Origin: Schmidtea nova
Taxonomy: Eukaryota
Direction of reading: 5' to 3'
Assembly: GCA_044892505.1 (NCBI GenBank)
Contig: CM097882.1
Location: forward strand, 477,214,001-477,278,000
Length of the DNA: 64,000 nucleotides
Of the stretch, positions 1-23,987 are shown piece by piece. A program made the position numbers and the translations under genes. How positions within the stretch are numbered: position 1 is the stretch's first letter; each line of letters starts with the position of its first letter. The notes under the pieces are model-generated. The model did no database searches. It was not told the DNA's origin and saw only the letters and a list, made by a program, of their open reading frames with translations.

Positions 1-3000
1 CATTAGAATTAATTTAGAAAAAATTAAGAGAAAATTCTAGAACAATTTGTTTTATTGCACTACCGGAGATAGAGAAAATTTGATGGTATATATACCGCCA
101 TCAAAATGGCAGATTTCAGATTTTGTGGAAAAAATTTTTTTGTTTTGCTAGCTAAGAGAATTTGTGAGAAGTTTTCCGAAAATTTTTATTGCTAACCTAA
201 TTAAAGAGAATTTGTACCATTTGCCTCAGAAATTTAGAATTGAAGATATTGTGGAAAGGATTCAATTTATTGGAAAATCGGAATTGGTCAAAATTTAGTT
301 CCCGGAGCACGAACCTTTTTAGTAGAAAACAAAATTTCTTCCTGGAGTTTGAAATGTTAGGTTTATTTTATTTTTGTTTTATTTTAAACTGATTCGAGGG
401 GTATGGGATCGTCGGTAATCATGCCTGTCGATCATCCCATTCCTCACGTTCGTATTATTTAAAAATGTATTATTTTTGTTATTTTATATAATGCAATTAT
501 TTTATTTTGATATTATTAAATATTAAAAATTTATTTTATTCAGTTTGATTTTGAAAATATTTTTGTTTATTATACTCACAAGTTCCCAAAACACCTAAAA
601 TTACTATGAGAATTGTCGAAATAAACTTATGAAATTAAATAATTTTTTTTATCTCCCATATCTTCTGACGATCCGTCCAGCCTTGGTTGTGCGGATCTGT
701 TAGTAGCCTGGGTGGATCGTTGTCTGATTGGTAATCGGCCAGCCCATATTTCCACTTTAAGGTGAGGCTCATACATCCAAATTCTCGTCATCCCAACTGG
801 GGAATCGTGGTTTGGCCAAGAGCAAGGTTTTGTTATACTAATGATTTTTATTATAATAGAGTATCATATTTTTATTATCTACATAAGCAATTTCGTAACA
901 CAACATAAAATCTTCTAATTCACGTCTTGAAATCTAAAATAGGAAATATTATTGATTAAAAAAAAAAAAAAAAAAAAAAAATCGACTCGTACTCACCTTC
1001 ACCTTCGCACTCTCAACAACGATCATCTCATGAGAAAATGCAAGAAAAATGGATGCTAACGATGAAAAGAAAATTGTTCGAATTAATGCTCAAGTCTAGA
1101 ATGATGCTCACGAAACGAAATGAATTGTGAAACAAGTATTGATTTAGTCTGAATTTAAGACTCATTATGGTCTAAATAAGTTTTTCCTGTGAATCTTGTT
1201 TTTCGAGAGCCTGAAATTCCTAAGTGAAGTGTCCCGAAAAATTCGCGTGCACTTTGATTGGGAAATTCATGCTCAACAAAACCGAAATTTACTTCACTTG
1301 ATGTTAAAAATATTCGTCGAAAAAGGTGTAACTTATTTTATTTTATTTTTTATTTTTATTTAGTATATAAATCTCTTTAGATTAAATGCATATTTAGATC
1401 TCGAAATTCATGGATAAAATATTTTTATTATTATTTCATTTTGATCAAGAATAAAAATTTGCTTTTTATTATACTGCAAAAATTTTAAAATGAAAAAATT
1501 ATAAACCAAAAAATGTTCCTAATATTATTAATATAAAAAAGATCTTATCATTTCATAAAATTCCAGAGAATTTGCAAATCAAAAGTTATATTAAACCCCA
1601 TAAAAATTATAGATTGAAAGTTTATTGTTATAGTAAAAATTCTTATTATTTTATAAAAATCTGAATTTGAAATTTTATAGAAAATTTTTTGGTTAATATA
1701 TATTCTAAAATATAAAAGGTTAAAAACCTATCTTATAAAAAAATTAAAAATTTTATCATTAGTAAATTTTTCATGAAACTATAAATACAAAAAAAATTTC
1801 ATAAAAAGCATTATAAAAATTATTATTATTATTTTAATTTAAAATTATTATTATTATGTTAAAATTATTTTATATAGTTTATTTAAATTATAATATAACC
1901 CCCCCCACGATATCTTAAAAATATTAATACATCACTCATTGCAAGAAATCACACCCTTTTCACTCAATAGCATCACCCATACTAATATACAAGCAACATA
2001 CATATAAAATACAATATACACACATACACCGTATCGTTCAATAACATTCAACAATCACATGCATACAAGCAAACCATACAGAAAATCTACACCGTTAGGT
2101 TAGTTAGCATCATATATCCATAGCTCATTCAGGCACTCGCTCAATCACATCCACATCGTTTATTTCATCCAACCGACCAATGAACACACCAACACATGCA
2201 TTTATAACAATAGGAAGTCCACCACCGAACTATAAAAGAAAAAAAAACATAAACGTGATTCACCACAATAGGTATTTCCCACAAATCTATAACAAAATAT
2301 AGCAGCCTCATTCACCTTCAGATCATCACCTTAGAAATTACTTTCATTCATCTGTGAACATACCTCGCTGACAATATAACTTCCAATACCACTACCCAAC
2401 AGTTGACAATGATTTATATATACCCCACTTCATATTTTAAAAAATTTTATAATAATAAAAAGACATTCAAGACAAAAAATTTATTGATAATAAACATCAT
2501 TCACAACAGTTCCAGAAAACAGTCTGGTAGGGATTTCCCATAAGGAAGTTGGTTCCGTTGAGGAGTAAAACAACATCCAATTTGGGTACGATTTCTCGAA
2601 AATATCCAATCGTACTATACGTCTGGCAGATATGAGAACGAAACAAAAAAATTAATTCCACAGAGCAACTGCCGCTTGCGACGATTGATAGATTTTATTT
2701 TTGTGGTTCCTCATCGGAAAGCTGCTGGAGAATTTTTATTTAAGCCCTCGAATTTAAAGGGAAAAGATATTGGTCTATCATAGACTTGGCATTGAACGAC
2801 GAACGTGGTGAATCTAGTGGCCTCTGAATCAAGTGATAATAAAGTAAAAATATATTGATAAATCTAAATTACCATTTTCGACGATGATAAATTTTCCAAT
2901 TGAGTAGAATTTCATAATAGGAATTTGAGAGAAATTAAATAAATAAATGATAATTCAAATTGTTATCATTTACAATTGAGGGGAAATAAATTTTTCTTCT

Positions 3001-3801
3001 GGTTCAAACAAGAAGAATATTTCCGTTTGGTAAATTGCACCTAATTTTGTTCCAAATAAATTTAAAAATGCAAAAAATTTTTTAAATTAAATTCAAGAAT
3101 TAAATAATTTCAAAAGACCGAAATCTGATGGTTATAAATTATAAGCAAAAGTTTTACTAAATCAATTTCGTTACTAAGGCCTCAGCAAAATTTTAAAATC
3201 AAAATATTGAAATTTTAATAAATATTTTATTATAAATTTAAAGCAAGATAGACAATAGGATTTGAATATAAATAAAGTTTACATAAATTTTAAATATAAA
3301 AAACATAACAATTTAAGGAAATTGCGATAATGATAAAAATTTGGGTCTAAATAAGAGCAATTTGTATATTCCCAAATATATACATTTTCTGAAGGAATAA
3401 TTGATCACCTATTTGAGTTGCGATAATATTTTCGAATGCATGTTGCGAATAGAGTAAAAGCGCTCGAATAAATTAATTGATTAATAAATAAATCACAGTT
3501 TGGCGAAAATACTCAAATAAAAATCTCGTAATAAACCTATACAGTGATAGAACAGATAAATTAAGGGGGACAAAAATGGGCAAGAAACCTTCTATCGGTA
3601 GCCCTTGGACCCAGGAGATATTCGGTCAATCATAGTTTCGTATTGACGACGCTCACTGATTGCGAATACCCACCCACTTGTTACAGTACCAACGTTACAT
3701 AGTGACGGGTAACAAGGTGGTAATTTCAATGTTTTATGTGTTGAGTTGTTGATGAGAGCCATAGAAACGTCAAGGTCATATTGACGGTCAACAACCCACC
3801 A
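1..3801 (+). repeat. 5' LTR (truncated by window start)
   Basis: Matches 20188-23987; in spot checks the only difference was a C8 vs C7 run (~1889 vs ~22086). Ends in CA and is followed by the PBS. Confidence 0.9.
3619..3801 (+). other. Structured U5-terminal element (three stem-loops), also at the 3' LTR end (~23805-23987) and in diverged copies
   Basis: Pairings: TATTCG..CAATCA/TGATTG-CGAATA with inner TCGT/ACGA hairpin; CCACTTGTTAC/GTAACAAGGTGG; GTTGTTGA/TCAACAAC enclosing CGTCAA/TTGACG. Confidence 0.6.
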
Positions 3802-3811
3802 TATAAAAATT

Positions 3812-3829
3812 TGGGGGCTCAGCCGGGAT
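3812..3829 (+). promoter_or_regulatory. Primer-binding site complementary to tRNA-Pro 3' end
   Basis: TGGGGGCTCAGCCGGGAT vs canonical Pro PBS TGGGGGCTCGTCCGGGAT (16/18), 10 nt after the LTR end; absent after the 3' LTR. Confidence 0.88.
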
Positions 3830-4105
3830 TATCTCGATTTAGCTAGTTTGTTTTGTGTGAAGCGAAAATCAATGGAAATGACTTTACGTGGAAGTTTGTT
3901 AATGTTTTTGCGTTGGAAAGATAAAAGTATTTTAAAGAAAAACGAGATTTGGTGAAAGTTTTATAAAAATCGATAATCATTTGAGTATTTTCGACGAAAA
4001 TGGAAAAAATTTATGCTTGATTATTAATATTATTTATATTACTATTATTATTTTTACGACAATAGTTATTTTATACCATTATAAGTATTATTATTAGGAT
4101 TATAA

Positions 4106-4259
4106 NNNNNNNNNNNNNNNNNNNNNNNNNNNNNNNNNNNNNNNNNNNNNNNNNNNNNNNNNNNNNNNNNNNNNNNNNNNNNNNNNNNNNNNNNNNNNNN
4201 NNNNNNNNNNNNNNNNNNNNNNNNNNNNNNNNNNNNNNNNNNNNNNNNNNNNNNNNNNN
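4106..4259. other. Assembly gap (N run)
   Basis: 154 N bases. Confidence 0.99.
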
Positions 4260-4919
4260 CATTGAGTAGAGAATTATAAGTAGAGAATATTATTTTAAGT
4301 ACCATTTTGAATTAAGATTTGGAAAAATTTGGAAAATAAAAAGTTCCGAATCAAAATCACCGCGAAAGCGAATAAAAGTTAAGCCGAAAAAACGATCTTT
4401 AAGCCCCACGAGCAGCCAATGATTGGAATTGAGAGCGAATAATAACAACAGAGCGTAGAATAAGTGTCTTTAATACAAATAAACGTCAAACATAGCATAG
4501 GATAAAAAGTCGAGCCGGAATGGGTCAAAAGTCTAAGAAAATCACGGGTAAAATAGTCAAAAATACCAAATCGCGACAAATGAACCCCGCGAACAACCAA
4601 TAATCGTAAAATTGTTCAAATAACGTCCATGGAGCGTAGAAAGTGAGTGTGCAACACCGGCAAGTGGAAAATACCTCGAAAGATAGAATATGACACCGGA
4701 ATCCGCAAAAAGTGTAGAAAATCGCCGCTAAGAAATTTAAAAGATTGAAGAAATTACGGAATTTTGACCCAAGAAAGCAGTAACACCAAGTATTAATGAT
4801 AGTGTAGATATCAGAATTATTATTATCATCATTTTAGTTGTGGAAACAGTAATTTGGTCAAATAATATAAAAATAAAACTGATTTATTATATTTTTATTA
4901 TAATTATTACGTAATAATA

Positions 4920-5160: not shown

Positions 5161-5924
5161 GTTATATTATTTGATTGAGAATGACTGAGGTATGACCCCT
5201 GTAATTTTATTTTTGTTGGCAGAGAGGGACATGGAAAGTATCGGGTCTAAAAGAAATAACGGCGAAAATGGAGCAATGCGTGAATTGTTTGTTTTAATTA
5301 ATATAATAATACAAGTAGAGAATGAATGATATAATCTAATAAGTTTGAAGTTTGAATGTTGCGAAAAATTAGATTGTTGAAGTCAAAATGATGCATGGTG
5401 ATATTGGAATGTTGATCGCGACTCAATTCGGGAATCGAAATCGGGTATAATTCAAAAATCTGATGAAATCATAAAATAATATCTAGTAACGACTTAAAAA
5501 AAACAAATATAATGATATAGAACCAAACAAGAAAACGTGAGACTTAACGTAAATACGAAAATCGTGAGATGCCCAAAATTAGGAACCTAGTAAAAGGAGA
5601 TGCTATATGACCATACGATACGGGATAGAGTTCACGCGAATCACTTAGGGAATAAATATTCGAATATACAAAATTGCTTTTAGTAAACAAAAAATTACCA
5701 AAAAATTGCGAATACTGTAAATAAAAAATATAATTATCTTAAAATTGATAAAAAGTGTAAAAATCATGAAAAAATTGTGTAAATAAATGTTCAATTATTT
5801 TTTATTTAGAAAATATTAGTATATAAAAAAAAATATAAAAAATCATAAAAATTATGTACATAATGGCTGATTATTTTAATATTTTATTCGAAAAATATCG
5901 AATATGGACGAATGGAGAAAATTA

Positions 5925-6570
5925 TAAAAATATAAAAATATAAAAAATATAAAAATACAAAAATATATGTATAAAAATGGCTGAATATTCTGTTAGTTAA
6001 AAATATAAAAATATAAAAATATAAAAATACAAAAATATATGTATAAAAATGGCTGAATATTCTGTTAGTTAAAAATATAAAAATATAAAAATACAAAAAT
6101 ATATGTATAAAAATGGCTGAATATTCTGTTAGTTAAAAATATAAAAATATAAAAATATAAAAATACAAAAATATATGTATAAAAATGGCTGAATATTCTG
6201 TTAGTTAAAAATATAAAAATATAAAAATATAAAAATACAAAAATATATGTATAAAAATGGCTGAATATTCTGTTAGTTAAAAATATAAAAATATAAAAAT
6301 ATAAAAATACAAAAATATATGTATAAAAATGGCTGAATATTCTGTTAGTTAAAAATATAAAAATATAAAAATATAAAAATACAAAAATATATGTATAAAA
6401 ATGGCTGAATATTCTGTTAGTTAAAAATATAAAAATATAAAAATATAAAAATACAAAAATATATGTATAAAAATGGCTGAATATTCTGTTAGTTAAAAAT
6501 ATAAAAATATAAAAATATAAAAATACAAAAATATATGTATAAAAATGGCTGAATATTCTGTTAGTAGTAG
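5925..6570. repeat. Tandem array, 9 units of ~72 bp (one 64 bp) inside the element leader
   Basis: Nine copies of ATGTATAAAAATGGCTGAATATTCTGTTAG separated by a variable number of 8-bp AAAAATAT modules. Confidence 0.95.
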
Positions 6571-6713
6571 TTTTGAAAAAATACAAAATATATAAAAAAT
6601 TATAAAAATTCGTGTACATAGCTGTTGAAGTTTTTATTATTTATTTTTCGTTCAAATCATAATGAATGGTTAATTCAAAAAGTTATAAACACCAGTCATC
6701 ATGAATATTTTAG

Positions 6714-7196
6714 ATGGAATCGATGGAGCATATTTTACTACGAATCGAGTTGTTTTTCGATTTTAAAAATGACCCATTGCAGGTGTTGAGCGAGAAACTC
6801 GAACGAGTAAATGGAATAAAAGATGAATTATTGTTGAATCCTAGACCACAACCCGAGAACCTAATAGTGATTGCAGGAATTGTGGGAACAACAAACGATA
6901 TTTCGTTGGAAATGATTTATGAATTACAACGATTGCGACTGAATAATCCGAATTTTAATCTAAAAATACAAGAATGGATTGGTAAAATCGATAAAATCAT
7001 GGACAAGCTAGAGAGATCGATAAATCAACAGAGCGATTCGTTCGAAAGATGTTATATTTGTCGACAAAAAGAAGCGAACATTTTATTCATGCCATGTGGG
7101 CATTTGTGCTATTGCCAGCCGTGCTCTAGAAAAATAAAGAGATGCGTAATCTGCAAACAGACAATTGATGACAAAATCATCGTATTTTGTTCGTAA
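6714..7196 (+). CDS. RING-finger (C3HC4, IAP/Mind-bomb-type) putative E3 ubiquitin ligase, 160 aa, no BIR domain
   Basis: C-terminal CYIC-x-ANILFMPCGHLCYCQPCSRKIKRCVICKQTI; acceptor TTTTAG directly before the ATG. Confidence 0.85.
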   Translation: MESMEHILLRIELFFDFKNDPLQVLSEKLERVNGIKDELLLNPRPQPENLIVIAGIVGTTNDISLEMIYELQRLRLNNPNFNLKIQEWIGKIDKIMDKLERSINQQSDSFERCYICRQKEANILFMPCGHLCYCQPCSRKIKRCVICKQTIDDKIIVFCS

Positions 7197-8240
7197 AGAA
7201 TGTCGTTCGAAATAAACGTTTTGGTCGTATTTAACTTCGTCGATCATCCAGTACTCCAAACCGTTAAAAAAAAAAAAAAAAAAAATTAAATAAACACAGA
7301 ACACTAGGTAATTAATAACTGAGAATCGTGAAAAAACATAACAAGTAACGGCTAATGCCGAAAAATCAAACATTAGGAAAATGGGAATTTGTGACAAAGT
7401 TACTTTTCTTTTCTTTTTGAATTTTCTTTATTATTATTATAAATCCTCCTCATAATTATTATTTTGAACCGAATTTCATTACTATAATCTTCCTTATTAC
7501 CATTATTATATTGATTATCATTATTATACTGATCATTATATATATAAATATGTATGTATTAGGACGAGCCATAAGTAGCGTTATAGAAGTTGATTTTATA
7601 AGGGAATCTTCCGAAATACAGTGAGAAATGAGTGTCTGAGTAGAAACGAGAAAATAGTCCACAAATTCATAACTGAGCTATCAAAAGATAGTACGCCAAG
7701 TTTTAACAGAGCTATCAAAAGATAGTACGTCAATATTTTTGTTGTTAAAAATTAGCAGACAACAAACGGGGAAAAACTTGATCACCTTGAGGAAAGAGAG
7801 TAGAATAGGATATCCATCGCATATGTTGGCGAAATTTCGTTTGTGACTGATCATCACAAATTGCGAAACGAGTTAACGCGATTATTTTACGATTTTGAAT
7901 TAGGTGAAAGGGCTTAACCCGTAATGTTCGTCTTATACACCAGTTTGCCAAGGCATGATTGGTACACTGAGGTAGAGGACAGTAACATTAATAAAGAGAA
8001 AGATGCTGCAGATTTTAGAAAGTCGAAAGAGTAAAAAGTGAATTTCGATGATTATAGTAGATGATAGTATAATAAGAAAAGATTCTACCATGGTAGTTAG
8101 GGAATTGATTCGTAATTGAGAAGTAGTAGAACAATTTGAGAAAAACAGTCAGCAACAGCGAATTTAGTTAAAAATTTGAGAATAGGGAAACGAGTGATTG
8201 AATAGCATAAAGAGAATAATCGAAGACGGCCGAGAAAAAA

Positions 8241-8788
8241 TTGAGAAACTTTGAGAGTTCATGTATGTGAGAGACTTTGAGAGTCCAGATAATTGAGAAA
8301 CTTTGAGAGTTCATGTATGTGAGAGACTTTGAGAGTCCAGATAATTGAGAAACTTTGAGAGTTCATGTATGTGAGAGACTTTGAGAGTCCAGATAATTGA
8401 GAAACTTTGAGAGTTCATGTATGTGAGAGACTTTGAGAGTCCAGATAATTGAGAGACTTTGAGAGTCCAGATAATTGAGAGACTTTGAGAGTCCAGATAA
8501 TTGAGAGACTTTGAGAGTCCAGATAATTGAGAGACTTTGAGAGTCCAGGTAATTTAGAGACTTTGAGAGTCCAGATAATTGAGCGCTCTGGGAGAGACTT
8601 TGAGAGTCCAGATAATTGAGAGACTTTGAGAGTCCAGATGATTGAGAAACTTTGAGAGTTCATGTATGAGAGACTTTGAGAGTCCAGATAATTGAGAAAC
8701 TTTGAGAGTTCATGTATGAGAGACTTTGAGAGTCCAGATAATTGAGAAACTTTGAGAGTTCATGTATGTGAGAGACTTTGAGAGTCCA
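8241..8788. repeat. Tandem array of ~21 x 26-bp monomers partly organised as 52-bp dimers
   Basis: Alternating TGAGAAACTTTGAGAGTTCATGTATG / TGAGAGACTTTGAGAGTCCAGATAAT units. Confidence 0.95.
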
Positions 8789-9551
8789 ATGTTTGTGGAT
8801 ATTGTTGAGAAATTTAGGAAAAACGTTTGAGAAATAGAATTAAATAAAACTGCAGTTATAATTTTGTTATGATAGAGAGAAACGTTGAACGCGAATACTT
8901 AAGGTGTAGTAAGATAAACCGTTAATAAGAGCAGATAAAAGACATCGAGAAATACTTAGGAAATAAAATAATGGCCATGAATAGATAACGAACAAGACAT
9001 TTTTCCTCGAATGCCGAGATGAGTATGATCATACTGTTATTATAGTATTAGTAATGTTATTATTATTGTTACTATTATTATTATTATTATCAGGGTATAG
9101 ATAATTGATACGACCATATAGATAATTATTACGAGATATAGATAATTTAAAATCTGAGCTCAGAGTAAAAGGGGGGTAAATGGCGTCGATGAAGAAGCGA
9201 TATTTTTATTTAGATTGTCCAACAGATCAAAGCCAAGCCAAGAGATAGTCAAATCAATCAGTTATTGAAGAGGTATATATAGAAGAAAAGAAGAAAAAGA
9301 AGTCTAATTGAAAAGGAAAGAAGTAAAAGAAAATAAATCAAAGAAGATCCAATTGAAGATAAAAGAAAGATCAGCAATCGATATTAAACACAAATTGACA
9401 ATATTACCAAACCAACCAAGTTCGTAAAGTCGAAAGATAAAGAGTCAAATCTATTAAAAACGACGAAAGGAAATTAAAAAGAAATAAAGCTGATAAATAA
9501 AGAAGTAAAATCCACAATATTAGAAAGTTTGTAGCCGATTTTCAGAAAGAA

Positions 9552-12500
9552 ATGGAGGAGAATCAGAAAGTTACCAGTGCAAACTCAGAAGATAATTTAT
9601 TAAAAGAAGAGCAGAAAATAACCAGTTCAAATGTAGAAGATAATTTACAGGAAGAAGAAAAAGAAGTAATAACAATGAAAATGCAACTACAACAGAATAT
9701 CGAAGGAAAAGTAAATGAAATGATAACCGAATTATCAGACGTTGAAATTGAAAGAAAGGGAAATGTATATGAATTTTCAGTAAAAGATATGGAGGGAGAA
9801 GAAAAGAAGAAGTTTGTGGAGAAATATAACCGAAAAAGAAGAGAAAGAAGAAGCAATGATGATACATGTAGCATGGACGAGAAATGGGATGAATCTACGA
9901 CAATCAAATTAGAAGAAGTGGCACAAAGATTGTTAACAATTACCATGGAAGAAATGACGAAAATGGATCAAAAATCAGAAGAAAAAATAAAATCAGCAAA
10001 ACTCGAAAGATCAAGACAAACGGAAACGTCAAAGACCGAACGATTAATCAGTAACCTAATCAAGAATGCAGGAAATCAATGCGAAACAACAACTGAATTA
10101 CTAAAATGGGTTATAAAAAATAGTGCAATTATATCAAACATGAGATTGATAGTGAAAGAAATCGAGAAATGCAGACGTTTATGCCCTTGGTATTCAACAC
10201 AATTTGATGACATCATGAGAAAATGGAAACAACTAGAACAAACAAACGATGATCCACAAATGTGCAGATTGAAAATTCAATTTCCGAATCTAGAAGAAAT
10301 AAAGATGAATGTATCATTAACAACAAAGATCAAAGAGATAAAAGAGAGATTACCATTTAACTTACCATTTCACTTGAAATATGATGGAGAATCGCTGGAT
10401 GATGATATAGAAATCGGTGTAACCCCGATACAAATCAAAACAAGTAATAAATTAACTGTTGATAAAATTGCAGGAAGCGAGTTGACCAGAAAAGCGAGAG
10501 GTGAAGATAATCCCGAAATAACGATAATTGCCATGATGAAAACTCCAGCTGGACCAACACTTACAATTAACATCGAAGTTAATGGTGTAAAAGTAGACGC
10601 GATGATAGATACTGGCGCAAATATATCGGCAATAGATATCGATATGATACCAGAAATGTTACGGCTATGCATCGAGAAAACATCAGTAGACGTAATAACA
10701 TGCAGCAAAGAATCTGTCAATATCGTTGGAAAAATATGGACGGACATCGAATACAGAAAAGTAAAAATATCAACTTATTTGACAGTCATAAAACAACTGG
10801 GTGCCTCATGCATTATTGGAACAGACTTAATACCAAAACTGTTAAAAGGATCTGTAATCGATTTGAATACGATGAAGTTAAAACACCTAATTGAAGAGAA
10901 TGGCACAAGAGAAACAATGATAGAACAATCAAATCCAGAAACAACCAGAAAAGGACAAGTATATATGTTTCGAGAGAATAAAAATGACGATTGGCTACAT
11001 CGTATATTAACTGCGAGCAGAAAAGTAAATCAGCCGACAACAATATCTGAACAACCTAAGATAGTTGACGATGTAAAAATGGAGCACCGCAAAAAGATGG
11101 AATTGATCATTGAGATTACCAAAGAAATTATGCCAGAATGGTCACAAAGTAAAAATCTATTTGAAATATTGGGAGGAGTAAGCTTAATGGTTGAGGAATA
11201 TGCCAAAGGAAATGAAACGACAGAAGCGATGAATACCATAAAAGAAAGATTACCAATATTATTTACAATTGCCAGTTTTAAAGATGAGATACCGTTATAT
11301 CACGCAATAAAAAGTGGGAATGAACAGAGAATGTTTGAAATCATAAAACTCATGGAAAAGTGCAAGCAACATACCAACACGAAAAACTGGAAAGATCAAA
11401 CACCCTTGATGGTAGCAATTGAAAAAGGAGGATCCAAGAAACTCATAGCAGAACTGATGAGAACCGGATCAAGTTTTAAAGAAAGAGATGATAAAAATGA
11501 AACGGTGTTATCTTATGCAGTGCAAGCAAATAACCATCAAATAATCAAATATATTATGTCAAATGCTACAGAAGAAGATATTGAAGTGCTCAGTTCAGAT
11601 CCAAATCCATTAGTAAATGCAGTGAACAAAGATGCCGACGAAACAACAGCAAAAATGATTAAATGGTTACATCCAGTTACGCACGAAGGAGTGATAAATG
11701 TCAATGACAGATTTGAAGACGGTGAAAATATGATAATGAAAAGAGCCATGAAAAGAAAATGGAAAATGTGTAAAACGATTAAAGCATTGCTGCAAAGACC
11801 TGATTTCAGGTTTACGAACAACAAAAAAGAAAAAGAAAGAATTGGAGCTAAAAGACATGAATTATATCAGCAAGTTATCATATGGAAAGAAAATATAAAA
11901 GAAAGCAGAATTCACCGAAGCTGGAACAACGCCAAAGATGAAATAACCAAGAGAGCAAATATAAAAGCCGAAGCAGACGAAATAGCTAAAAGATATGAAG
12001 AAATAATAAAATTAATAAATGTCGAGGACGACATTTTAAACAGAACCGAGGGTGGTTCTAATGATCACAATGAGTCTGACGATGAAGGTGAAGAGAATAA
12101 CAACAACAAAACAAAGAAAGATGACAATGAGAGTATCAACAGAAACAATGACAAAGACGAGAAAGATGATGGAAAAAGCAATAACGACGAAATTGGGAAC
12201 AAAAGTGATGAACCCAAGCAAGAAACTTCAAACTATGAAAAACGAACAGCATGTCTACATAAAACTCGAATAAAAGACATAATATTACTGATATTGATGC
12301 TGTCAGCATTGAAAGGAACGGAAGCTGATGACAAGAGAAAACCAGTACAAGTATTAACACAAGGAGCAGATAATGAAGAAGCATGTTGGAGTAGCATCAA
12401 CTTGCAAAGTAAAGGAGATAACCCAGTCAAATGTCAACGAGCAGAAGGAGGAGAAATCCGAATAAATGGATTAAAACGAGAAACAAAATATAAAATCTGT

Positions 12501-12662
12501 GTTTACAAAAAGAAAGCAGCACAAGGATTGTTTAGAACACTCGTACGCCAGATAGTAGCACATAATGGTTCAAAAGTCACCCAAGAAGACATAAAAGTCA
12601 TATTAACCGACGAACTAGATGAGAACATCAGAGTGTCGTCGAAACGCAAGCTGCCGGAATAA
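9552..12662 (+). CDS. 1036-aa polyprotein: helical N-terminus, ubiquitin-like domain, retropepsin-type aspartic protease, ~5 ankyrin repeats, acidic linker, internal signal-like segment, FN3-like domain
   Basis: Protease VNGVKVDAMIDTGANISAI...IIGTDL (DTG at 10608). Ankyrin TPLMVAI/TVLSYAV/NPLVNAV (aa ~578-752). Ubl-like FHLKYDGESLDDD (aa ~238-303). IILLILMLSALKGTEA followed by INGLKRETKYKICVY. Confidence 0.85.
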   Translation: MEENQKVTSANSEDNLLKEEQKITSSNVEDNLQEEEKEVITMKMQLQQNIEGKVNEMITELSDVEIERKGNVYEFSVKDMEGEEKKKFVEKYNRKRRERRSNDDTCSMDEKWDESTTIKLEEVAQRLLTITMEEMTKMDQKSEEKIKSAKLERSRQTETSKTERLISNLIKNAGNQCETTTELLKWVIKNSAIISNMRLIVKEIEKCRRLCPWYSTQFDDIMRKWKQLEQTNDDPQMCRLKIQFPNLEEIKMNVSLTTKIKEIKERLPFNLPFHLKYDGESLDDDIEIGVTPIQIKTSNKLTVDKIAGSELTRKARGEDNPEITIIAMMKTPAGPTLTINIEVNGVKVDAMIDTGANISAIDIDMIPEMLRLCIEKTSVDVITCSKESVNIVGKIWTDIEYRKVKISTYLTVIKQLGASCIIGTDLIPKLLKGSVIDLNTMKLKHLIEENGTRETMIEQSNPETTRKGQVYMFRENKNDDWLHRILTASRKVNQPTTISEQPKIVDDVKMEHRKKMELIIEITKEIMPEWSQSKNLFEILGGVSLMVEEYAKGNETTEAMNTIKERLPILFTIASFKDEIPLYHAIKSGNEQRMFEIIKLMEKCKQHTNTKNWKDQTPLMVAIEKGGSKKLIAELMRTGSSFKERDDKNETVLSYAVQANNHQIIKYIMSNATEEDIEVLSSDPNPLVNAVNKDADETTAKMIKWLHPVTHEGVINVNDRFEDGENMIMKRAMKRKWKMCKTIKALLQRPDFRFTNNKKEKERIGAKRHELYQQVIIWKENIKESRIHRSWNNAKDEITKRANIKAEADEIAKRYEEIIKLINVEDDILNRTEGGSNDHNESDDEGEENNNNKTKKDDNESINRNNDKDEKDDGKSNNDEIGNKSDEPKQETSNYEKRTACLHKTRIKDIILLILMLSALKGTEADDKRKPVQVLTQGADNEEACWSSINLQSKGDNPVKCQRAEGGEIRINGLKRETKYKICVYKKKAAQGLFRTLVRQIVAHNGSKVTQEDIKVILTDELDENIRVSSKRKLPE

Positions 12663-12856: not shown

Positions 12857-14305
12857 ATGAAAAAACTAGCCAGTATAATTGTCCTATGCTCCGTATTCAA
12901 CACCTTATCAAGAAACAATGCAGAAGAATACTTTTTCAGCACAACAACAGCTAATCAGATTGCCTATAAAACAATTGAAAAGAGACCTAAAAACTCCTAT
13001 GAAAACATTCAATTACATGTCCTATTGACAAGCTTATCCGGAACATTGCTATATTTAACAAACGACGATGGTAATCAATTAATTTTAACCCTCTATAATG
13101 AAATCAGTGAAAGAATGAAGATAGAATACAAAGAGCTTGATTATGTTGTAGAACTTTGCGAGTTATGCCAAGATCAAAGCACCAGCGAATGTGAATTGTA
13201 CAAATATCGATCAATCAAAGTAAATATCAAGATTGCAGATAAACTCGCTGTCAAATGTAACCAAGGCAAGGAAACATTCTTTGAGTATGGAGAAAAACAA
13301 ATTACTAAAACTGATTACCCAACGATAAAGGAAATTGACAAAACAACAACACTTATCTACGTCATGAACACACCTCAACATGACAAAGGATACCCCAATC
13401 CTGAACAATTACAAGGTTGTGTGTATAAAGTGGAATACAATAATAAAACGCTGAAAATGGAAAGGAGCAGTGAAGAGATAAAAAACGAATGTCGAAAAAT
13501 ATGTACAGACAATATCTGTAATGAAGGTAAATGTTATGAAACATTTTCCGAGAAACCTATCTGTAATTGTAAATTTACCCCAAAAAACGGTCGGTACTGT
13601 AACACCAGCAGCATTAGCCGGAAATACCGAAGAATCAACGCACAAAAGCAAACACTTTGGATAGATTATGTAAAGTTATTAATAAATAACAACTCGAAGG
13701 AGCTAATTTTTGAAATGGAGAACAAAGAATCCAGATTGTACATACGGAGAGAAAGAGCATCAATTACAGTCAAATATGAAAACAAGAAAGACTGGTATAT
13801 AGAAGGCTTTTTGGCCAACCAGGTTGATGAAGTCAAACTGATAATAATAGGCATGAAGTTCACGGAGAAAGGAATCCATTTCCATATTATCAATCAGAAA
13901 ACCGAAATCTCAAGAGAAATGCCTGTTTTAGAAAAGATGAATGAAATACCTTGGAAACTTATAACGATTGCAGATAGTGTAGAAATGATATATAAGATAC
14001 ACCATTCACGGTACGATTGGTGCAGTACTGACATGGACGAAATTAGGAATAATGACAGAACATGTGCGGAAATTGAAGTAGTTCCTCCAACGAACGAAGC
14101 GAGAAGCCTAACAATGAAAAAGTTACCAATGGAGACAAATTATAAGATCAGTCGTCAAACATTCGTCAGTACATTAGTAATAGAAATTATAATCCTAGTC
14201 ACCGGAACTATTGGAATTTTTGTCCTCGTATACAAGAGAGCAAAACGGAAACTCGAACAACGAGTAAATATGATTTTGGAACAAGTTCATATGACCCCAG
14301 TATAA
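12857..14305 (+). CDS. 482-aa type I membrane protein: signal peptide, LamG-like, EGF, second LamG-like, TM, tail ending MTPV (neurexin/Caspr-like layout)
   Basis: N-terminal hydrophobic MKKLASIIVLCSVF; LTSLSGTLLYL and LQGCVYKVEYN LamG-type motifs; EGF CTDNICNEGKCYETFSEKPICNCKFTPKNGRYC; TM TLVIEIIILVTGTIGIFVLVY followed by KRAKRK. Confidence 0.75.
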   Translation: MKKLASIIVLCSVFNTLSRNNAEEYFFSTTTANQIAYKTIEKRPKNSYENIQLHVLLTSLSGTLLYLTNDDGNQLILTLYNEISERMKIEYKELDYVVELCELCQDQSTSECELYKYRSIKVNIKIADKLAVKCNQGKETFFEYGEKQITKTDYPTIKEIDKTTTLIYVMNTPQHDKGYPNPEQLQGCVYKVEYNNKTLKMERSSEEIKNECRKICTDNICNEGKCYETFSEKPICNCKFTPKNGRYCNTSSISRKYRRINAQKQTLWIDYVKLLINNNSKELIFEMENKESRLYIRRERASITVKYENKKDWYIEGFLANQVDEVKLIIIGMKFTEKGIHFHIINQKTEISREMPVLEKMNEIPWKLITIADSVEMIYKIHHSRYDWCSTDMDEIRNNDRTCAEIEVVPPTNEARSLTMKKLPMETNYKISRQTFVSTLVIEIIILVTGTIGIFVLVYKRAKRKLEQRVNMILEQVHMTPV

Positions 14306-14454: not shown

Positions 14455-14904
14455 ATGAATTCGAACAACGAGAATCAAAGTTATCAAACATCAGTTCCAA
14501 CGTTCAATGAACCATCAAATCAAACTCAGTTTCCAGAAGATACCAATATACGAGAAAGAGAAAGGTCACTGCAAACCCCAGTAATCGAAAATGAAACGCA
14601 AAATCCAACAATTGACGATAGAAACCTGATATACCAAGTCGAAATTCCACTATTTGATGAAACCATGAACCCAATTCAAACGACATTCGTATTAAATCAA
14701 CAACCAACAAATAGCCAGACTCAATCAATATCAGCTCCGATGGTTTATCAGCAGACAATGACGCAAGAGTTATCATGGAAAACGCAATGTGAATTATTAA
14801 GCAGGATGTTGAATCAAGCCTATGCACAATGGAAAAATGAACAAGCTTTGTTAACAGAAAGTGTAAACAGAAATTTATTATATCTCCGTTATGCCGATCA
14901 ATAA
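14455..14904 (+). CDS. 149-aa Q/N/T/P-rich protein with C-terminal helix, unknown function
   Basis: Open frame; first ATG at 14455 lies 2 nt after a CAG acceptor (the track's TTG start at 14446 lies upstream of the acceptor). Confidence 0.7.
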   Translation: MNSNNENQSYQTSVPTFNEPSNQTQFPEDTNIRERERSLQTPVIENETQNPTIDDRNLIYQVEIPLFDETMNPIQTTFVLNQQPTNSQTQSISAPMVYQQTMTQELSWKTQCELLSRMLNQAYAQWKNEQALLTESVNRNLLYLRYADQ

Positions 14905-16868: not shown

Positions 16869-17444
16869 ATGAGACTATTGAAGCAAAGATCAGAACCAGA
16901 ACAACAAACGATATCAAAAGAAAGATTCAAAAAACGGAAAAGAGCAACAGAACAATATTATCAAGACCAAATAGAGCAATTGAAGGAAGTAGTGAGCAAA
17001 GATAGAAAATATATCGCGCAAATGGAGCAAGAGTGCGAGACGATGGAAATAATCAAGCGCGAAAATTATCTATTTCGCCAACAAAATGGTCTTACCCAAA
17101 AATATTGCTACAGACAGAAGCAAGAGATTGACAGACTCAAAAGGGAAATAAGCAGTGAACAGAACACTGATAATAAAAGGAGGATTAAGATCGAGTCATT
17201 ACAACGATCATTGAAGAACAAACAGAAAAAGATTATAAAAAGAGAGAAACAGATAATAAAGTTGAAAAGTGAAATCATAGAAGCAAAATTCGATACGTTC
17301 AAAGCAAAGAAAGTTGTAGAAATTAAAACGGCAGAAAACTACGTCCTCAAAGAGAAAAGGCGAAAAGAAGCAGACGAGATTGCAAAAATGGGTAACTGGA
17401 AGCCAGAAAGTCCGTTAAAGCTAAATGAAGAGACGAAAGAATAA
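16869..17444 (+). CDS. 191-aa basic coiled-coil protein
   Basis: K/R/E/Q-rich ORF preceded by TATAG acceptor; AATAAA overlaps the stop. Confidence 0.75.
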   Translation: MRLLKQRSEPEQQTISKERFKKRKRATEQYYQDQIEQLKEVVSKDRKYIAQMEQECETMEIIKRENYLFRQQNGLTQKYCYRQKQEIDRLKREISSEQNTDNKRRIKIESLQRSLKNKQKKIIKREKQIIKLKSEIIEAKFDTFKAKKVVEIKTAENYVLKEKRRKEADEIAKMGNWKPESPLKLNEETKE

Positions 17445-17539
17445 AATATATCTAAACTCATGTAAATATCCCTGTAAAAATATCAAAGAGAAAATTTGAC
17501 AAATCATTAAACAAATTTGAATCTATAAATCTATAGAAA

Positions 17540-18364
17540 ATGAGCAATCTAATGAGGATCACAACAACCATCATGATATTTATGATTACAAACTGCCGAA
17601 GCGAAGAAGCATTGAGTCAATGTCAAGCAAGCCATCCATTTAGAAGATCCGATAGCATTTGTGCAAGCTATCAAGAAATGTGTATCACCAGAAATGAGGA
17701 GTGTCAACAGATCCAACTGCAATGTCAACAATGTCCAAAATCCAGAGAAGATTCAATCACTATTCTTAAACAGCTAAAAAACGAAACCCAACAATTAATC
17801 CAACTACAAATCTCCTTAACCCAAAGGAACAATCTTCAACTAAAGAAACAGCTCGAAAATCAATCATCTTTCAAACAGTTAACAACCGAACTAAAGAAAT
17901 TGAGCAAGTTAATAGAAAAATCTTTAAATAATAAAGATGAAGTTAATGAGGAACGATCAAGTTTTACAGAAGAGTTAAATCAAAAACTGAAAAGTCAACT
18001 TCATCAGACCGAGAGAATCATAAAACAATTGATATTACCCGAAAAGCAAAAGGAGATTATCCCTAAACAAGGATCAACCAACGAAGACGTCAGAGACCGA
18101 GAAGCAGCCATCACAGTCGTCCTACAAGGCATCAGTCTTTTCGCGGTCATAATGATCCTTAGCATTGTTGCATCAATCGGATTAGAAAAAATGAAATTAG
18201 AGAAAGCAAAAATCCAGTTGAATACAATCAAAAGAATCACCCATGAAGACAACAACCCGTCAGAAAATTTTCTAAGATCAATATTCGAAGATCCAGTTCC
18301 AGAACAGCCTAATCCTGAGACATCTACAACCTCGGTGCAGATGAATTACTTCTATAAACAATAA
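17540..18364 (+). CDS. 274-aa type I membrane protein: signal peptide, Cys-rich head, coiled-coil stalk, TM, tail
   Basis: MRITTTIMIFMITNC signal; six Cys in the head after the signal; Leu heptads; TM AITVVLQGISLFAVIMILSIVASIGL. Confidence 0.8.
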   Translation: MSNLMRITTTIMIFMITNCRSEEALSQCQASHPFRRSDSICASYQEMCITRNEECQQIQLQCQQCPKSREDSITILKQLKNETQQLIQLQISLTQRNNLQLKKQLENQSSFKQLTTELKKLSKLIEKSLNNKDEVNEERSSFTEELNQKLKSQLHQTERIIKQLILPEKQKEIIPKQGSTNEDVRDREAAITVVLQGISLFAVIMILSIVASIGLEKMKLEKAKIQLNTIKRITHEDNNPSENFLRSIFEDPVPEQPNPETSTTSVQMNYFYKQ

Positions 18365-18566
18365 TACGATTCTATTCCCTTTTGACAATTCATGTATTTT
18401 CTTCCATTCATTTAACCTATCTATCTATTTGTATTCTCATCTTTAACAATATTTCATCATCATTTAAATCATAACCCTGTGTAAAAATCGTAACACCCTT
18501 GTAAATAGCAAAAATTGTTTATCGTCATTATTCAATTTCTTTCTATTAGAAACACAAAAATCAACA

Positions 18567-19361
18567 ATGAAATCGTACCGAGAAGTTTTTCTAATCGCCA
18601 TGATCACAACAATTTATTGTCATCTCGAAGAAACCCAGAAATCAAGCCAATTAAACCCAAATCAACCAGATAATAAAGAACCATTTGAAATCTCTAACAA
18701 CAAACAACTATCCGAAAAGATTGAGCAAGCCAAAATCGAAATTCAAAATACCCTTTTCGATCAAAATGATGAAATTTCAGGTCTAAAAAGAATAGCAAGG
18801 ATAATATTAGCCGATTTAGCGATCAGAGATACATTCGAGGATATCTTTGATAATGATCGAGAAACCCGTGACGTAATAAAAAGTCTCACCAAAGAACTTA
18901 AAACGAATATAGGCAAGTTAATCGATCAGCTAACGATAAATTCATCAAGTCCGAAATGTCTGAAACAAATCCAGAAAATTCATCATAACCTGTCCCAGCA
19001 GATTTCCGAAGTAGGAAACCAAACGGCACAACAACTAAGAAAGGCTTATTTCGAAAGCCTGACATTTAAGAATAAAATCCACAATCACATAAACGAGATA
19101 TCGAAACCGGATAACAATCAAGGCAGAGACAAGTGCAGAGCACCCCTCCTATCATCCAAACGAATTCTCGATATCTGCCTGATCATCCTTAACTTTTTCC
19201 TAATAATCGGAATTTGTGGTATAATACGGTTAGGCTTGACCGCCACAAGAACGATGAACAACATGACCTCCAAACAATCCCGAAGAGAAGATGACAAGAA
19301 ACAGTTGATCGATACCGAGTCATTCAAACTATTCCAGTCGAAGATCCAACCAATTCAATAA
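18567..19361 (+). CDS. 264-aa type I membrane protein: signal peptide, helical ectodomain, TM, tail
   Basis: VFLIAMITTIYC signal; TM ILDICLIILNFFLIIGICGIIRLGL; size and topology parallel the preceding ORF. Confidence 0.8.
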   Translation: MKSYREVFLIAMITTIYCHLEETQKSSQLNPNQPDNKEPFEISNNKQLSEKIEQAKIEIQNTLFDQNDEISGLKRIARIILADLAIRDTFEDIFDNDRETRDVIKSLTKELKTNIGKLIDQLTINSSSPKCLKQIQKIHHNLSQQISEVGNQTAQQLRKAYFESLTFKNKIHNHINEISKPDNNQGRDKCRAPLLSSKRILDICLIILNFFLIIGICGIIRLGLTATRTMNNMTSKQSRREDDKKQLIDTESFKLFQSKIQPIQ

Positions 19362-20187
19362 TAAATTTGATAATTCAACAAACTTAATAAAACTTTTATC
19401 CGAGTCGTTGTAGACTCATATTGAACTTTGATTAGCCGCTGTAGGCACATATATTACATTTAATTTTGCTTGCGAGTCGATGCAGACTCATATTAATGTA
19501 TACGTATTAACTTTTTATTAATTTTTATCACTTTTTATTTTTTATTGTCGCGAACGGCATGATCACGACCAAGTAGCTCGTGTATAATGTACAACCTTTT
19601 GACCTTTGATTAGTCTTGGTTCTTAACCCCTCTGAGAAATTGCGGGACGCAATTTTTGCGGGCCCCCGAGTATTTTATGTTGGGCCAAAACCCAATTTGT
19701 TTTAATAAAACGATAACCCCATAGGTAGAGAACGCGCAAGATTCCATTTTTAACCTTAGCTTCCATTGAAAATCCAACAATTAAGTGGAAAACACCAAAA
19801 GGTGAAGATGAATCAAAACACAGCAACCGGTAGAATGCGCGCTAACTGCGAATTTATAAATATTTTCACTGAAATCTCGAGAAAAATTAAAAGCAGAATG
19901 TTTGGAAGCTAGAATAGGCAAAAAACCCATGGAAAGTGCCCATAAAGAACAGAATTTTGTCATAAAATCTTCAGTACAGAAAAATTAACAAAATTTTAGA
20001 AGAAAATTGTGAATTTATCACAAAATTTCACATTTAACAATAGAAAGAATTAATATGGATCGAATATCATAAATTAAATCAAATCGAACAAATTTCGATT
20101 CAAACATGAGAATTTTGAATTAAAATAAATTATTTATAGTTTATAAAAAATTATTATACAAAAATATGGAATTAATTTTCGGAAAAT

Positions 20188-23100
20188 CATTAGAATTAAT
20201 TTAGAAAAAATTAAGAGAAAATTCTAGAACAATTTGTTTTATTGCACTACCGGAGATAGAGAAAATTTGATGGTATATATACCGCCATCAAAATGGCAGA
20301 TTTCAGATTTTGTGGAAAAAATTTTTTTGTTTTGCTAGCTAAGAGAATTTGTGAGAAGTTTTCCGAAAATTTTTATTGCTAACCTAATTAAAGAGAATTT
20401 GTACCATTTGCCTCAGAAATTTAGAATTGAAGATATTGTGGAAAGGATTCAATTTATTGGAAAATCGGAATTGGTCAAAATTTAGTTCCCGGAGCACGAA
20501 CCTTTTTAGTAGAAAACAAAATTTCTTCCTGGAGTTTGAAATGTTAGGTTTATTTTATTTTTGTTTTATTTTAAACTGATTCGAGGGGTATGGGATCGTC
20601 GGTAATCATGCCTGTCGATCATCCCATTCCTCACGTTCGTATTATTTAAAAATGTATTATTTTTGTTATTTTATATAATGCAATTATTTTATTTTGATAT
20701 TATTAAATATTAAAAATTTATTTTATTCAGTTTGATTTTGAAAATATTTTTGTTTATTATACTCACAAGTTCCCAAAACACCTAAAATTACTATGAGAAT
20801 TGTCGAAATAAACTTATGAAATTAAATAATTTTTTTTATCTCCCATATCTTCTGACGATCCGTCCAGCCTTGGTTGTGCGGATCTGTTAGTAGCCTGGGT
20901 GGATCGTTGTCTGATTGGTAATCGGCCAGCCCATATTTCCACTTTAAGGTGAGGCTCATACATCCAAATTCTCGTCATCCCAACTGGGGAATCGTGGTTT
21001 GGCCAAGAGCAAGGTTTTGTTATACTAATGATTTTTATTATAATAGAGTATCATATTTTTATTATCTACATAAGCAATTTCGTAACACAACATAAAATCT
21101 TCTAATTCACGTCTTGAAATCTAAAATAGGAAATATTATTGATTAAAAAAAAAAAAAAAAAAAAAAAATCGACTCGTACTCACCTTCACCTTCGCACTCT
21201 CAACAACGATCATCTCATGAGAAAATGCAAGAAAAATGGATGCTAACGATGAAAAGAAAATTGTTCGAATTAATGCTCAAGTCTAGAATGATGCTCACGA
21301 AACGAAATGAATTGTGAAACAAGTATTGATTTAGTCTGAATTTAAGACTCATTATGGTCTAAATAAGTTTTTCCTGTGAATCTTGTTTTTCGAGAGCCTG
21401 AAATTCCTAAGTGAAGTGTCCCGAAAAATTCGCGTGCACTTTGATTGGGAAATTCATGCTCAACAAAACCGAAATTTACTTCACTTGATGTTAAAAATAT
21501 TCGTCGAAAAAGGTGTAACTTATTTTATTTTATTTTTTATTTTTATTTAGTATATAAATCTCTTTAGATTAAATGCATATTTAGATCTCGAAATTCATGG
21601 ATAAAATATTTTTATTATTATTTCATTTTGATCAAGAATAAAAATTTGCTTTTTATTATACTGCAAAAATTTTAAAATGAAAAAATTATAAACCAAAAAA
21701 TGTTCCTAATATTATTAATATAAAAAAGATCTTATCATTTCATAAAATTCCAGAGAATTTGCAAATCAAAAGTTATATTAAACCCCATAAAAATTATAGA
21801 TTGAAAGTTTATTGTTATAGTAAAAATTCTTATTATTTTATAAAAATCTGAATTTGAAATTTTATAGAAAATTTTTTGGTTAATATATATTCTAAAATAT
21901 AAAAGGTTAAAAACCTATCTTATAAAAAAATTAAAAATTTTATCATTAGTAAATTTTTCATGAAACTATAAATACAAAAAAAATTTCATAAAAAGCATTA
22001 TAAAAATTATTATTATTATTTTAATTTAAAATTATTATTATTATGTTAAAATTATTTTATATAGTTTATTTAAATTATAATATAACCCCCCCACGATATC
22101 TTAAAAATATTAATACATCACTCATTGCAAGAAATCACACCCTTTTCACTCAATAGCATCACCCATACTAATATACAAGCAACATACATATAAAATACAA
22201 TATACACACATACACCGTATCGTTCAATAACATTCAACAATCACATGCATACAAGCAAACCATACAGAAAATCTACACCGTTAGGTTAGTTAGCATCATA
22301 TATCCATAGCTCATTCAGGCACTCGCTCAATCACATCCACATCGTTTATTTCATCCAACCGACCAATGAACACACCAACACATGCATTTATAACAATAGG
22401 AAGTCCACCACCGAACTATAAAAGAAAAAAAAACATAAACGTGATTCACCACAATAGGTATTTCCCACAAATCTATAACAAAATATAGCAGCCTCATTCA
22501 CCTTCAGATCATCACCTTAGAAATTACTTTCATTCATCTGTGAACATACCTCGCTGACAATATAACTTCCAATACCACTACCCAACAGTTGACAATGATT
22601 TATATATACCCCACTTCATATTTTAAAAAATTTTATAATAATAAAAAGACATTCAAGACAAAAAATTTATTGATAATAAACATCATTCACAACAGTTCCA
22701 GAAAACAGTCTGGTAGGGATTTCCCATAAGGAAGTTGGTTCCGTTGAGGAGTAAAACAACATCCAATTTGGGTACGATTTCTCGAAAATATCCAATCGTA
22801 CTATACGTCTGGCAGATATGAGAACGAAACAAAAAAATTAATTCCACAGAGCAACTGCCGCTTGCGACGATTGATAGATTTTATTTTTGTGGTTCCTCAT
22901 CGGAAAGCTGCTGGAGAATTTTTATTTAAGCCCTCGAATTTAAAGGGAAAAGATATTGGTCTATCATAGACTTGGCATTGAACGACGAACGTGGTGAATC
23001 TAGTGGCCTCTGAATCAAGTGATAATAAAGTAAAAATATATTGATAAATCTAAATTACCATTTTCGACGATGATAAATTTTCCAATTGAGTAGAATTTCA

Positions 23101-23987
23101 TAATAGGAATTTGAGAGAAATTAAATAAATAAATGATAATTCAAATTGTTATCATTTACAATTGAGGGGAAATAAATTTTTCTTCTGGTTCAAACAAGAA
23201 GAATATTTCCGTTTGGTAAATTGCACCTAATTTTGTTCCAAATAAATTTAAAAATGCAAAAAATTTTTTAAATTAAATTCAAGAATTAAATAATTTCAAA
23301 AGACCGAAATCTGATGGTTATAAATTATAAGCAAAAGTTTTACTAAATCAATTTCGTTACTAAGGCCTCAGCAAAATTTTAAAATCAAAATATTGAAATT
23401 TTAATAAATATTTTATTATAAATTTAAAGCAAGATAGACAATAGGATTTGAATATAAATAAAGTTTACATAAATTTTAAATATAAAAAACATAACAATTT
23501 AAGGAAATTGCGATAATGATAAAAATTTGGGTCTAAATAAGAGCAATTTGTATATTCCCAAATATATACATTTTCTGAAGGAATAATTGATCACCTATTT
23601 GAGTTGCGATAATATTTTCGAATGCATGTTGCGAATAGAGTAAAAGCGCTCGAATAAATTAATTGATTAATAAATAAATCACAGTTTGGCGAAAATACTC
23701 AAATAAAAATCTCGTAATAAACCTATACAGTGATAGAACAGATAAATTAAGGGGGACAAAAATGGGCAAGAAACCTTCTATCGGTAGCCCTTGGACCCAG
23801 GAGATATTCGGTCAATCATAGTTTCGTATTGACGACGCTCACTGATTGCGAATACCCACCCACTTGTTACAGTACCAACGTTACATAGTGACGGGTAACA
23901 AGGTGGTAATTTCAATGTTTTATGTGTTGAGTTGTTGATGAGAGCCATAGAAACGTCAAGGTCATATTGACGGTCAACAACCCACCA
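20188..23987 (+). repeat. 3' LTR (portion verifiable against the 5' copy). True start lies between 19362 and 20188; candidate TGTTGGG at 19678 would give ~4.3 kb
   Basis: Direct repeat of 1-3801. TGTTGGG is a 6/7 inverted match to the terminal CCCACCA. The start cannot be fixed because the 5' LTR start is outside the window. Confidence 0.88.

Follow-up and report, generated by a model that had tools for sequence, protein, structure and literature searches.

The Burro/GYPSM1 elements of dugesiid planarians are giant gypsy-like retrotransposons with multi-kb long terminal repeats (LTRs) and accessory open reading frames (ORFs), and the Burro section of PMC6431247 names PF11976, MATH, BIR and ankyrin domains and an in-frame Env. 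We have examined a 64,000-nucleotide stretch of the Schmidtea nova genome (assembly GCA_044892505.1, contig CM097882.1, positions 477,214,001 to 477,278,000 of the forward strand; hereafter the window), in which a frame that we call ORF1 sits within a 24.5-kb LTR element. The element resembles Burro in these general features and in its modules, which include SUMO-like PF11976, protease, ankyrin, MATH/TRAF, BIR and coiled-coil segments (PMC6431247), but it belongs to a family, referred to here as the satellite, that has no Gag, Env, reverse transcriptase (RT), RNase H (RH) or integrase (IN) and is about 7-fold commoner than the complete elements, or helpers, of the same genome. The helper has the order described for Burro, Gag-3xCCHC-MATH-SUMO-like-Env-protease (PR)-RT-RH-IN in one frame of ~5,000 amino acids (PMC6431247), and it is by domain content and order against that description, with no named Burro1 or GYPSM1 sequence aligned, that we provisionally assign both to the Burro lineage.

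Coding non-autonomous LTR elements are also known, usually with Gag (PMC13570524). The plant TR-GAG and GAG/PROT-retaining families are, like the satellite, non-autonomous with partial coding capacity, sometimes including a protease, but they keep Gag (PMC13570524), whereas the satellite has lost Gag, still has a protease and fits several cargo genes into 24–28 kb; the Gag ORF that characterizes TR-GAG was not found by tblastn in the satellite's internal region. The mouse IAP 1-delta-1 element, in which one 1.9-kb deletion produces an in-frame gag-pol fusion acting in cis, is likewise non-autonomous with a fusion made by internal deletion, and is mobilised in trans and dominates new insertions (PMC6466679); ORF1 differs in having several deletions, in having neither capsid nor nucleocapsid, in keeping a protease and non-viral modules, and in being far diverged from its helper. 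Defective elements outrunning their helpers have been reported in cattle (PMC10924933). The Burro section of PMC6431247 makes no mention of a coding non-autonomous family, and in the literature searched, outside which the original Burro papers lie, we found neither such a family of Burro nor a giant satellite that has lost Gag, retains a protease and cargo genes and is under selection of its own, nor was there one in the relevant parts of PMC8532177, PMC11410931 and PMC13238120.

ORF1 and the helper polyprotein

Searching the genome with a diverged copy of the ankyrin region yielded frames of up to 5006 amino acids, with single frames of that length at two helper loci. Their products contain, in order, Gag, MATH, SUMO-like, Env, protease, RT, RH, IN, ankyrin, an internal signal, four FN3-like repeats and a transmembrane segment (TM). 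In one such element Pfam identifies Gag (residues 155–248), zinc knuckles, MATH (1240–1384), a viral fusion glycoprotein (1939 to ~2554), protease, RT, RNase H, integrase, ankyrin (4045–4121) and fn3 (4543–4581), and hydropathy places internal signal-like stretches at ~1941 (before Env) and ~4363 and TMs at ~2517 and ~4891. BCL2-like and dUTPase-like motifs, for which PMC6431247 used HHpred, gave no Pfam match in the helper at E 0.05. We also note a further membrane protein, in addition to Env, at the end of the polyproteins of two Burro families; it consists of an internal signal, about four FN3-like repeats with cysteines, a TM and a tail, and the Burro section of PMC6431247 does not mention it.

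ORF1 is a collinear patchwork of this polyprotein, and we regard its origin by deletion as virtually certain. Its residues 32–185 correspond to helper residues 542–704 (33% identity, collinear up to near residue 105), 105–314 to 1381–1583 (46%), 311–444 to 2743–2876 (67%), and 436–1025 to 3888–4494 (38%). Where the ubiquitin-like (Ubl) domain meets the protease, ~1160 amino acids including Env have been lost, and where the protease meets the ankyrin part ~1010 amino acids (RT, RNase H and integrase) are gone; the coil-MATH block is also deleted, capsid and nucleocapsid are gone from the N-terminal part, truncation has removed FN3 repeats 2–4 and the TM, and all of the deletion junctions are in frame. 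In two further Burro families of the genome the Ubl and protease are also far apart. Six-frame tblastn with the helper polyprotein, together with Pfam, found no Gag, RT, RNase H or integrase in the internal region of the element, bearing out the original prediction, which was made from the letters of the window alone, that ORF1 stands in place of gag-pol.

The element is a non-autonomous Burro retrotransposon, and because these enzymes are missing and the LTR ends are common to both, it is probably mobilised by helper proteins. The last 235 LTR bases are 96–99% alike between helpers and satellite (the LTR middles are 67–81% alike), and the primer-binding site (PBS), 3' priming region and RING ORF are shared. 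Two LTRs, a PBS, a target duplication, dispersed copies and cis ends common to the helper are thus all present, as expected of a non-autonomous LTR element; the 4-bp duplications are CTAG and CATG in sister copies of the satellite and ATAC and AATA in helpers. The PBS has 2,951 exact matches in the genome (control 0). We take it to be of the tRNA-Pro type; ARAGORN reported no tRNA within the window.

The motifs named in the original prediction lie where it placed them, with KIKEIKERL at residue 259 and FHLKYDGESLDDD at 273 in the Ubl-like segment, DTG at 353, the signal-like IILLILMLSALKGTEA at 910 and the FN3-like INGLKRETKYKICVY at 971. Two of the predicted domains are firm, as both the protease (RVP, E 6.5e-5) and the ankyrin repeats (Ank_2, E 4.4e-10) exceed the Pfam cut-offs and the top Foldseek rows for the protease are retropepsins. 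Protein database searches returned only generic ankyrin proteins or nothing: one gave two matches, one gave none, and in a third the best 150 listed all fall on the ankyrin stretch. For the Ubl the leads are weak but consistent: PF11976 (SUMO-like) at E 0.025, below the cut-off; a beta-beta-alpha-beta pattern in AlphaFold at low pLDDT (45–61); Rad60 SLD2 in Foldseek (E 0.098, root-mean-square deviation 2.8 over 63 columns); and an Atlas lead of 0.84–0.86. A profile of four sequences did not find ubiquitin in PDB. The FN3 leads are weak and come from the repeat family rather than from ORF1's own repeat, which has no Pfam match and whose single-sequence model (pLDDT 46.6) has no sandwich; it is homologous to the four helper repeats, one of which matches fn3 (E 4.8e-4), as do 2 of 9 homologous repeats in all, and in a profile search of PDB eight of nine rows are FN3-bearing by name (fibronectin, Tie2, tenascin, ELFN1; E 0.017–0.81), with Atlas leads of 0.87–0.89. 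The absence of any further TM was correctly predicted, the best 19-residue hydropathy window in ORF1 (1.36) being the signal-like stretch itself.

The four-helix region before the Ubl has a confident predicted model (pLDDT 73–89), and its structural matches (Z up to 8.7) are to generic helical repeats, none of them specific; a reading of residues 130–232 as a CARD, made by eye, was dropped on these grounds. An ordinary capsid at the N-terminus was likewise rejected, as the helper capsid (residues 155–248) has no match in ORF1.

The protease and the Ddi1 comparison

The order of Ubl and retropepsin in ORF1 recalls Ddi1/DDI2, in which a ubiquitin-like domain lies N-terminal of a protease of the same fold (PMC7149228), and the original prediction proposed that the retroelement protease had been refitted as a substrate-targeted host-protein protease, with a secreted FN3 piece. 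The retroelement origin is correct, with 85 of 119 protease residues (71%) identical to the helper's, 64–66 of 119 to those of other Burro families, and 24 of 98 (24%) to host Ddi1. A protease tree of 16 rows groups ORF1 with the Burro proteases (support 80/91, with a long-branch warning for Ddi1). Host Ddi1 is an intron-bearing gene of its own that scores 148 bits against PF09668; ORF1 scores 24, and other gypsy proteases of the genome reach 45. The best rows for the ORF1 protease in both PDB (E 0.026) and Foldseek (E 4e-3) are nevertheless the RVP domain of Ddi1, weak matches in each case; with the helper protease HIV protease ranks first.

Ddi1 is a host gene with the architecture UBL-HDD-RVP, and its activity requires the HDD (PMC7149228). 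In ORF1 the Ubl ends at about residue 314 and the protease begins at about 325, so that the ~10 residues between them hold no HDD, and the helical region precedes the Ubl. Moreover, motifs like helper domain boundaries are retained on either side of the protease, and by resemblance these are putative cleavage sites that would free it from the Ubl and the ankyrin part. The placement of Ubl beside retropepsin comes from deletion and not from convergence on Ddi1, and we consider the Ddi1 reading unlikely. In its strict form, in which an uncleaved Ubl-protease-ankyrin fusion targets host proteins and secretes an FN3 piece, it has in its favor the domain order, the Ddi1 matches, an active site that is intact and selected (see below), and a deletion origin that is compatible with new function; but the deletion junctions, the identities, the PF09668 scores, the missing HDD and the flanking boundary-like sites all weigh against it, as do the variable FN3 cysteines and a signal core that is disrupted in 9 of 35 copies, and we judge it highly improbable.

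Copy number, selection and the role of ORF1

A protease 20-mer of the satellite has 1,878 genome matches and one of the helper 260 (controls 0 and 3), the latter a lower bound as the helper 20-mer was chosen from two copies; the satellite is thus about 7-fold commoner, with ~1,900 against ~260 copies. Among the first 30 of the 2,951 PBS matches, 19 have a satellite LTR end, of which 16 are ORF1-type, two helper-type and one unmatched. The best 137 genome matches to ORF1 are 95–100% identical to it, and all are deletion-type with open frames of no more than 1081 amino acids. Synonymous divergence (dS) between satellite and helper ranges from 0.87 to saturated, and nonsynonymous divergence (dN) from 0.17 in the protease to 0.57 in the tail. 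Because dS to the helper is so high the satellite family must be old, and because the two LTRs of the window copy are identical (4310 of 4310 aligned bases, with one gap) it is still inserting.

Selection was examined in 26 of 36 copies retained after near-duplicates were dropped, using variants present in at least two copies and a mutation-spectrum null; the p values are optimistic, as the copies are related and recombining and 14 of the 36 are top matches to the window. The ORF1 core, residues 1–835, is under purifying selection in the satellite's own lineage, with an omega of 0.28 (92 nonsynonymous and 101 synonymous variants; p 6e-18). The ankyrin part is the most constrained (0.10, p 2e-9), the protease has an omega of 0.34 (p 0.002), and DTG is intact in all 36 copies. 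Residues 836–1036 are no different from neutral (0.72); 9 of 35 copies have a Lys within the hydrophobic core of the signal, replacements of the FN3 cysteines are frequent, and we conclude that the signal/FN3 tail is decaying. The predicted combination of a signal with an FN3-like piece is a real design of the helper, with its signal at ~4363, four repeats and TM, but its ORF1 version is the least constrained part of the protein.

It could be argued that ORF1 is a passive remnant, and that its surplus of synonymous changes goes back to a closer, unsampled autonomous parent or arrived via recombination with that parent. The near-neutral tail would fit this, as would the multiplication of a stop-bearing lineage (below), and closer parents at a few per cent are compatible with the counts. 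However, all 16 ORF1-type loci of the PBS sample and all of the best 137 matches are deletion-type, every junction is in frame, and DTG is intact in all of the 36 copies compared. An ORF1-type protease continuing into RT was not found genome-wide, in a search with a sensitivity of about half, and the protease-end motif, present in 17 of 33 copies, continues differently at only one place in the genome, an unrelated element. We therefore consider passive inheritance improbable.

The interpretation that we favor, with a probability of roughly 0.6, is that ORF1 is a self-processing remnant polyprotein that aids the satellite in using helper particles. ORF1 would be translated from spliced RNA, dimerise through its retropepsin and cut itself at the retained Burro boundary sites, so that the N-terminal coil/helix-Ubl part, the protease and the ankyrin part come apart; each would act as in the helper, in particle assembly and maturation, and the satellite RNA would gain a quantitative rather than absolute edge in using helper Gag, RT and IN, much as the IAP 1-delta-1 fusion does in cis. 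The signal/FN3 tail would be a decaying remnant of the helper type-I membrane protein. With regard to splicing, four of 33 genomic copies, among them one pair of near-duplicates, lack precisely the 41-nt intron that precedes ORF1, the trace expected from reverse transcription of a spliced RNA; the intron joint is also present in four of four sequencing runs of unknown kind, which is uninformative on expression.

Several points weigh against this interpretation. ORF1 has neither capsid nor nucleocapsid with which to join a particle or bind its RNA; the cleavage sites are assigned by resemblance, and expression, cleavage and packaging are predictions; and the omega of the Ubl, at 0.49, is not significantly below neutral (p 0.18). 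In addition, 18 of the 137 best matches have a stop within the query stretch, and a single TAG is common to 16 of them. The five TAG copies compared, which are spread over three contigs, are identical over 700 nt, and their stop takes the place of residue 396, within the protease. This lineage has multiplied without an intact protease or downstream ankyrin, and ORF1 is therefore not strictly needed in cis; it gives at most a quantitative advantage, or one partly shared in trans.

A second possibility, which we regard as doubtful, is that ORF1 still cuts itself but the ankyrin and Ubl pieces so released target host signalling alongside the TRAF and IAP cargo, keeping the expressing cells alive, with selection at the level of the cell or host and a division of labour with the helper. 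The ankyrin part is where constraint is strongest, and a product usable in trans tolerates stop-bearing lineages. The sister copies compared over their whole length encode RING-zfTRAF-MATH and BIR-RING IAP ORFs in five of five cases (four of these were picked from a list of BIR matches, so that no frequency follows), a BIR 20-mer has 982 genome matches, and both ORFs are missing from the two helpers compared; further, the Burro1 IAP is reported, second-hand, in PMC13465017 to protect stem cells. Yet a product common to ~1,900 copies should be under weak selection per copy, which sits poorly with the low omega of the core; the window copy, inserted very recently, has neither TRAF nor IAP; and ankyrin repeats are also in the helper.

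Element structure, cargo genes and significance

The internal region of the element contains the RING ORF, ORF1 and six more ORFs (Table 1).

Table 1. Features of the satellite element and of ORF1, in window coordinates.
Feature	Position	Strand	Remarks
5' LTR, 4311 nt	1–3801 (start 510 nt before window base 1)	+	begins TGTTGGG, ends CCCACCA
PBS	3812–3829	+	common to helper and other Burro families
RING-only ORF, 160 aa	6714–7196	+	counterpart in helper elements, 72–78% identical
GT..AG intron, 41 nt	9505–9545	+	just 5' of ORF1 ATG; precisely missing from some genomic copies
ORF1, Burro mini-polyprotein made by deletions	9552–12662	+	open frame, 1036 aa
N-terminal stretch, aa ~32–105	9645–9866	+	homologous to helper aa ~542–620, after zinc knuckles (33% identity)
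Four-helix region before Ubl, aa ~130–232	9939–10247	+	homologous to helper stretch after MATH
SUMO/ubiquitin-like domain, aa 237–314	10260–10493	+	helper aa ~1506–1583, 68% identical
Candidate self-cleavage site before protease, TIIA/MM	10521–10538	+	putative; resembles helper MTIA/MM
Retropepsin, aa ~325–444	10524–10883	+	catalytic D353 at 10608; helper aa ~2757–2876
Candidate cleavage site before ankyrin part, QVYM/FR	10956–10973	+	putative; resembles helper QICM/LR after integrase
Ankyrin repeats	11295–11831	+	Pfam aa 582–672; homology to helper runs to ~aa 760
D/N/E-rich linker	12057–12236	+	omega 0.95, neutral evolution
Internal signal-like segment	12279–12326	+	homologous to helper aa ~4363–4377
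One degenerate FN3-like repeat	12330–12581	+	helper counterpart: four repeats + TM
Cargo ORF	12857–14305	+	signal-like N-end, Cys-rich EGF-like stretch (by eye), C-terminal TM; minor subfamily
Cargo ORF	14455–14904	+	longer in sister copies
Coiled-coil cargo ORF, 515 aa	15039–16586	+	27%-identical relative in second Burro family
Three cargo ORFs (191, 274, 264 aa)	16869–19361	+	last two: signal-like N-end, one TM
3' LTR, 4310 nt	19678–23987	+	A-run flank, so 4-bp target duplication uninformative at window copy

The first cargo ORF after ORF1 is missing in all five sister copies compared and has no useful Pfam match; its depth in four sequencing runs of unknown kind is 5–10% of that of ORF1, which is no more than a hint. 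The TRAF (492-aa) and BIR-RING IAP (399-aa) frames of the sister copies follow the homologue of the second, at the place where the window copy has neither. A YAG acceptor-like site lies 0–17 nt from the ATG of all eight ORFs (starting at 6714, 9552, 12857, 14455, 15039, 16869, 17540 and 18567), a count for which there is no chance control, and AATAAA-like signals follow the stop codon in most of them; together these suggest cis- or trans-spliced subgenomic RNAs.

The 5' internal region also contains tandem arrays at 5862–6659 and 8187–8791, with 72-nt and 26/52-nt periods, which recur in the helper with variable length. Two right-hand LTR ends can be recognized around window positions 3795–3811: one copy ends 7 nt further out, in ...TATAACA, with the target duplication CTAG, and the remaining copies compared and both helpers have TATAAAA there and insert at the inner CCCACCA, so that a 10-nt gap separates it from the PBS. 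Within the LTR of some copies there is an open frame of ~190–210 amino acids that has no Pfam match and is missing from the window LTR. Elsewhere in the window we note, 4.9 kb downstream of the element, an older related LTR end that no PBS follows (28651–28903; 87% identical), and an integrase zinc-finger fragment of an unrelated LTR element (48798–49712).

Other families were encountered in the genome searches. Four RT-family loci were compared as possible partners of the satellite and rejected as ordinary gypsy elements, and a Bcl-2-bearing family with a frame of ~3,070 amino acids was rejected because its LTRs and PBS are different. The latter is a gypsy family of ~14 kb whose LTRs measure 1.1 kb and whose frame, of 3,060–3,080 amino acids, contains a weak Bcl-2 match, a zinc knuckle and protease and RT motifs, and it fills most rows of one genome search. 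A dUTPase search of the genome gave one locus. A second deletion family has satellite LTR ends and a 1345-aa frame covering the polyprotein from the tail of integrase to its end, ankyrin included; its LTRs are 99.8–99.9% identical (C1:158408863-158412897 and C1:417116296-417120330), and it was frequent in the search that found the helpers. Further elements have the satellite PBS but different LTR ends; in the stretches compared, their similarity to the helper is confined to Gag, and they are possibly Gag-only derivatives.

These observations remove a tempting false lead, in that the adjacency of Ubl and retropepsin arises here by deletion, and they describe a giant coding satellite that has kept a protease while losing Gag, opposite to what is usual in the papers cited here. 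The internal-signal/FN3x4/TM tail of the helper is a further membrane module of Burro. The satellite both outnumbers its helper and carries anti-apoptotic cargo. It is conceivable, although we think it unlikely, that Burro has become effectively bipartite in this genome, the helper (~260 copies) giving Gag, Env, RT and integrase and the satellite (~1,900) giving a selected protease-ankyrin-Ubl protein together with TRAF and IAP, so that the reported host-benefit function would ride on the dependent partner; on this view the deletions may also have provided the fused Ubl-protease-ankyrin with a new host substrate. In the planarian host, whether the stem-cell-protective IAP activity is located on a non-autonomous element is testable by satellite- and helper-specific RNA interference, as is the part that a polyprotein without Gag plays for the RNA encoding it.

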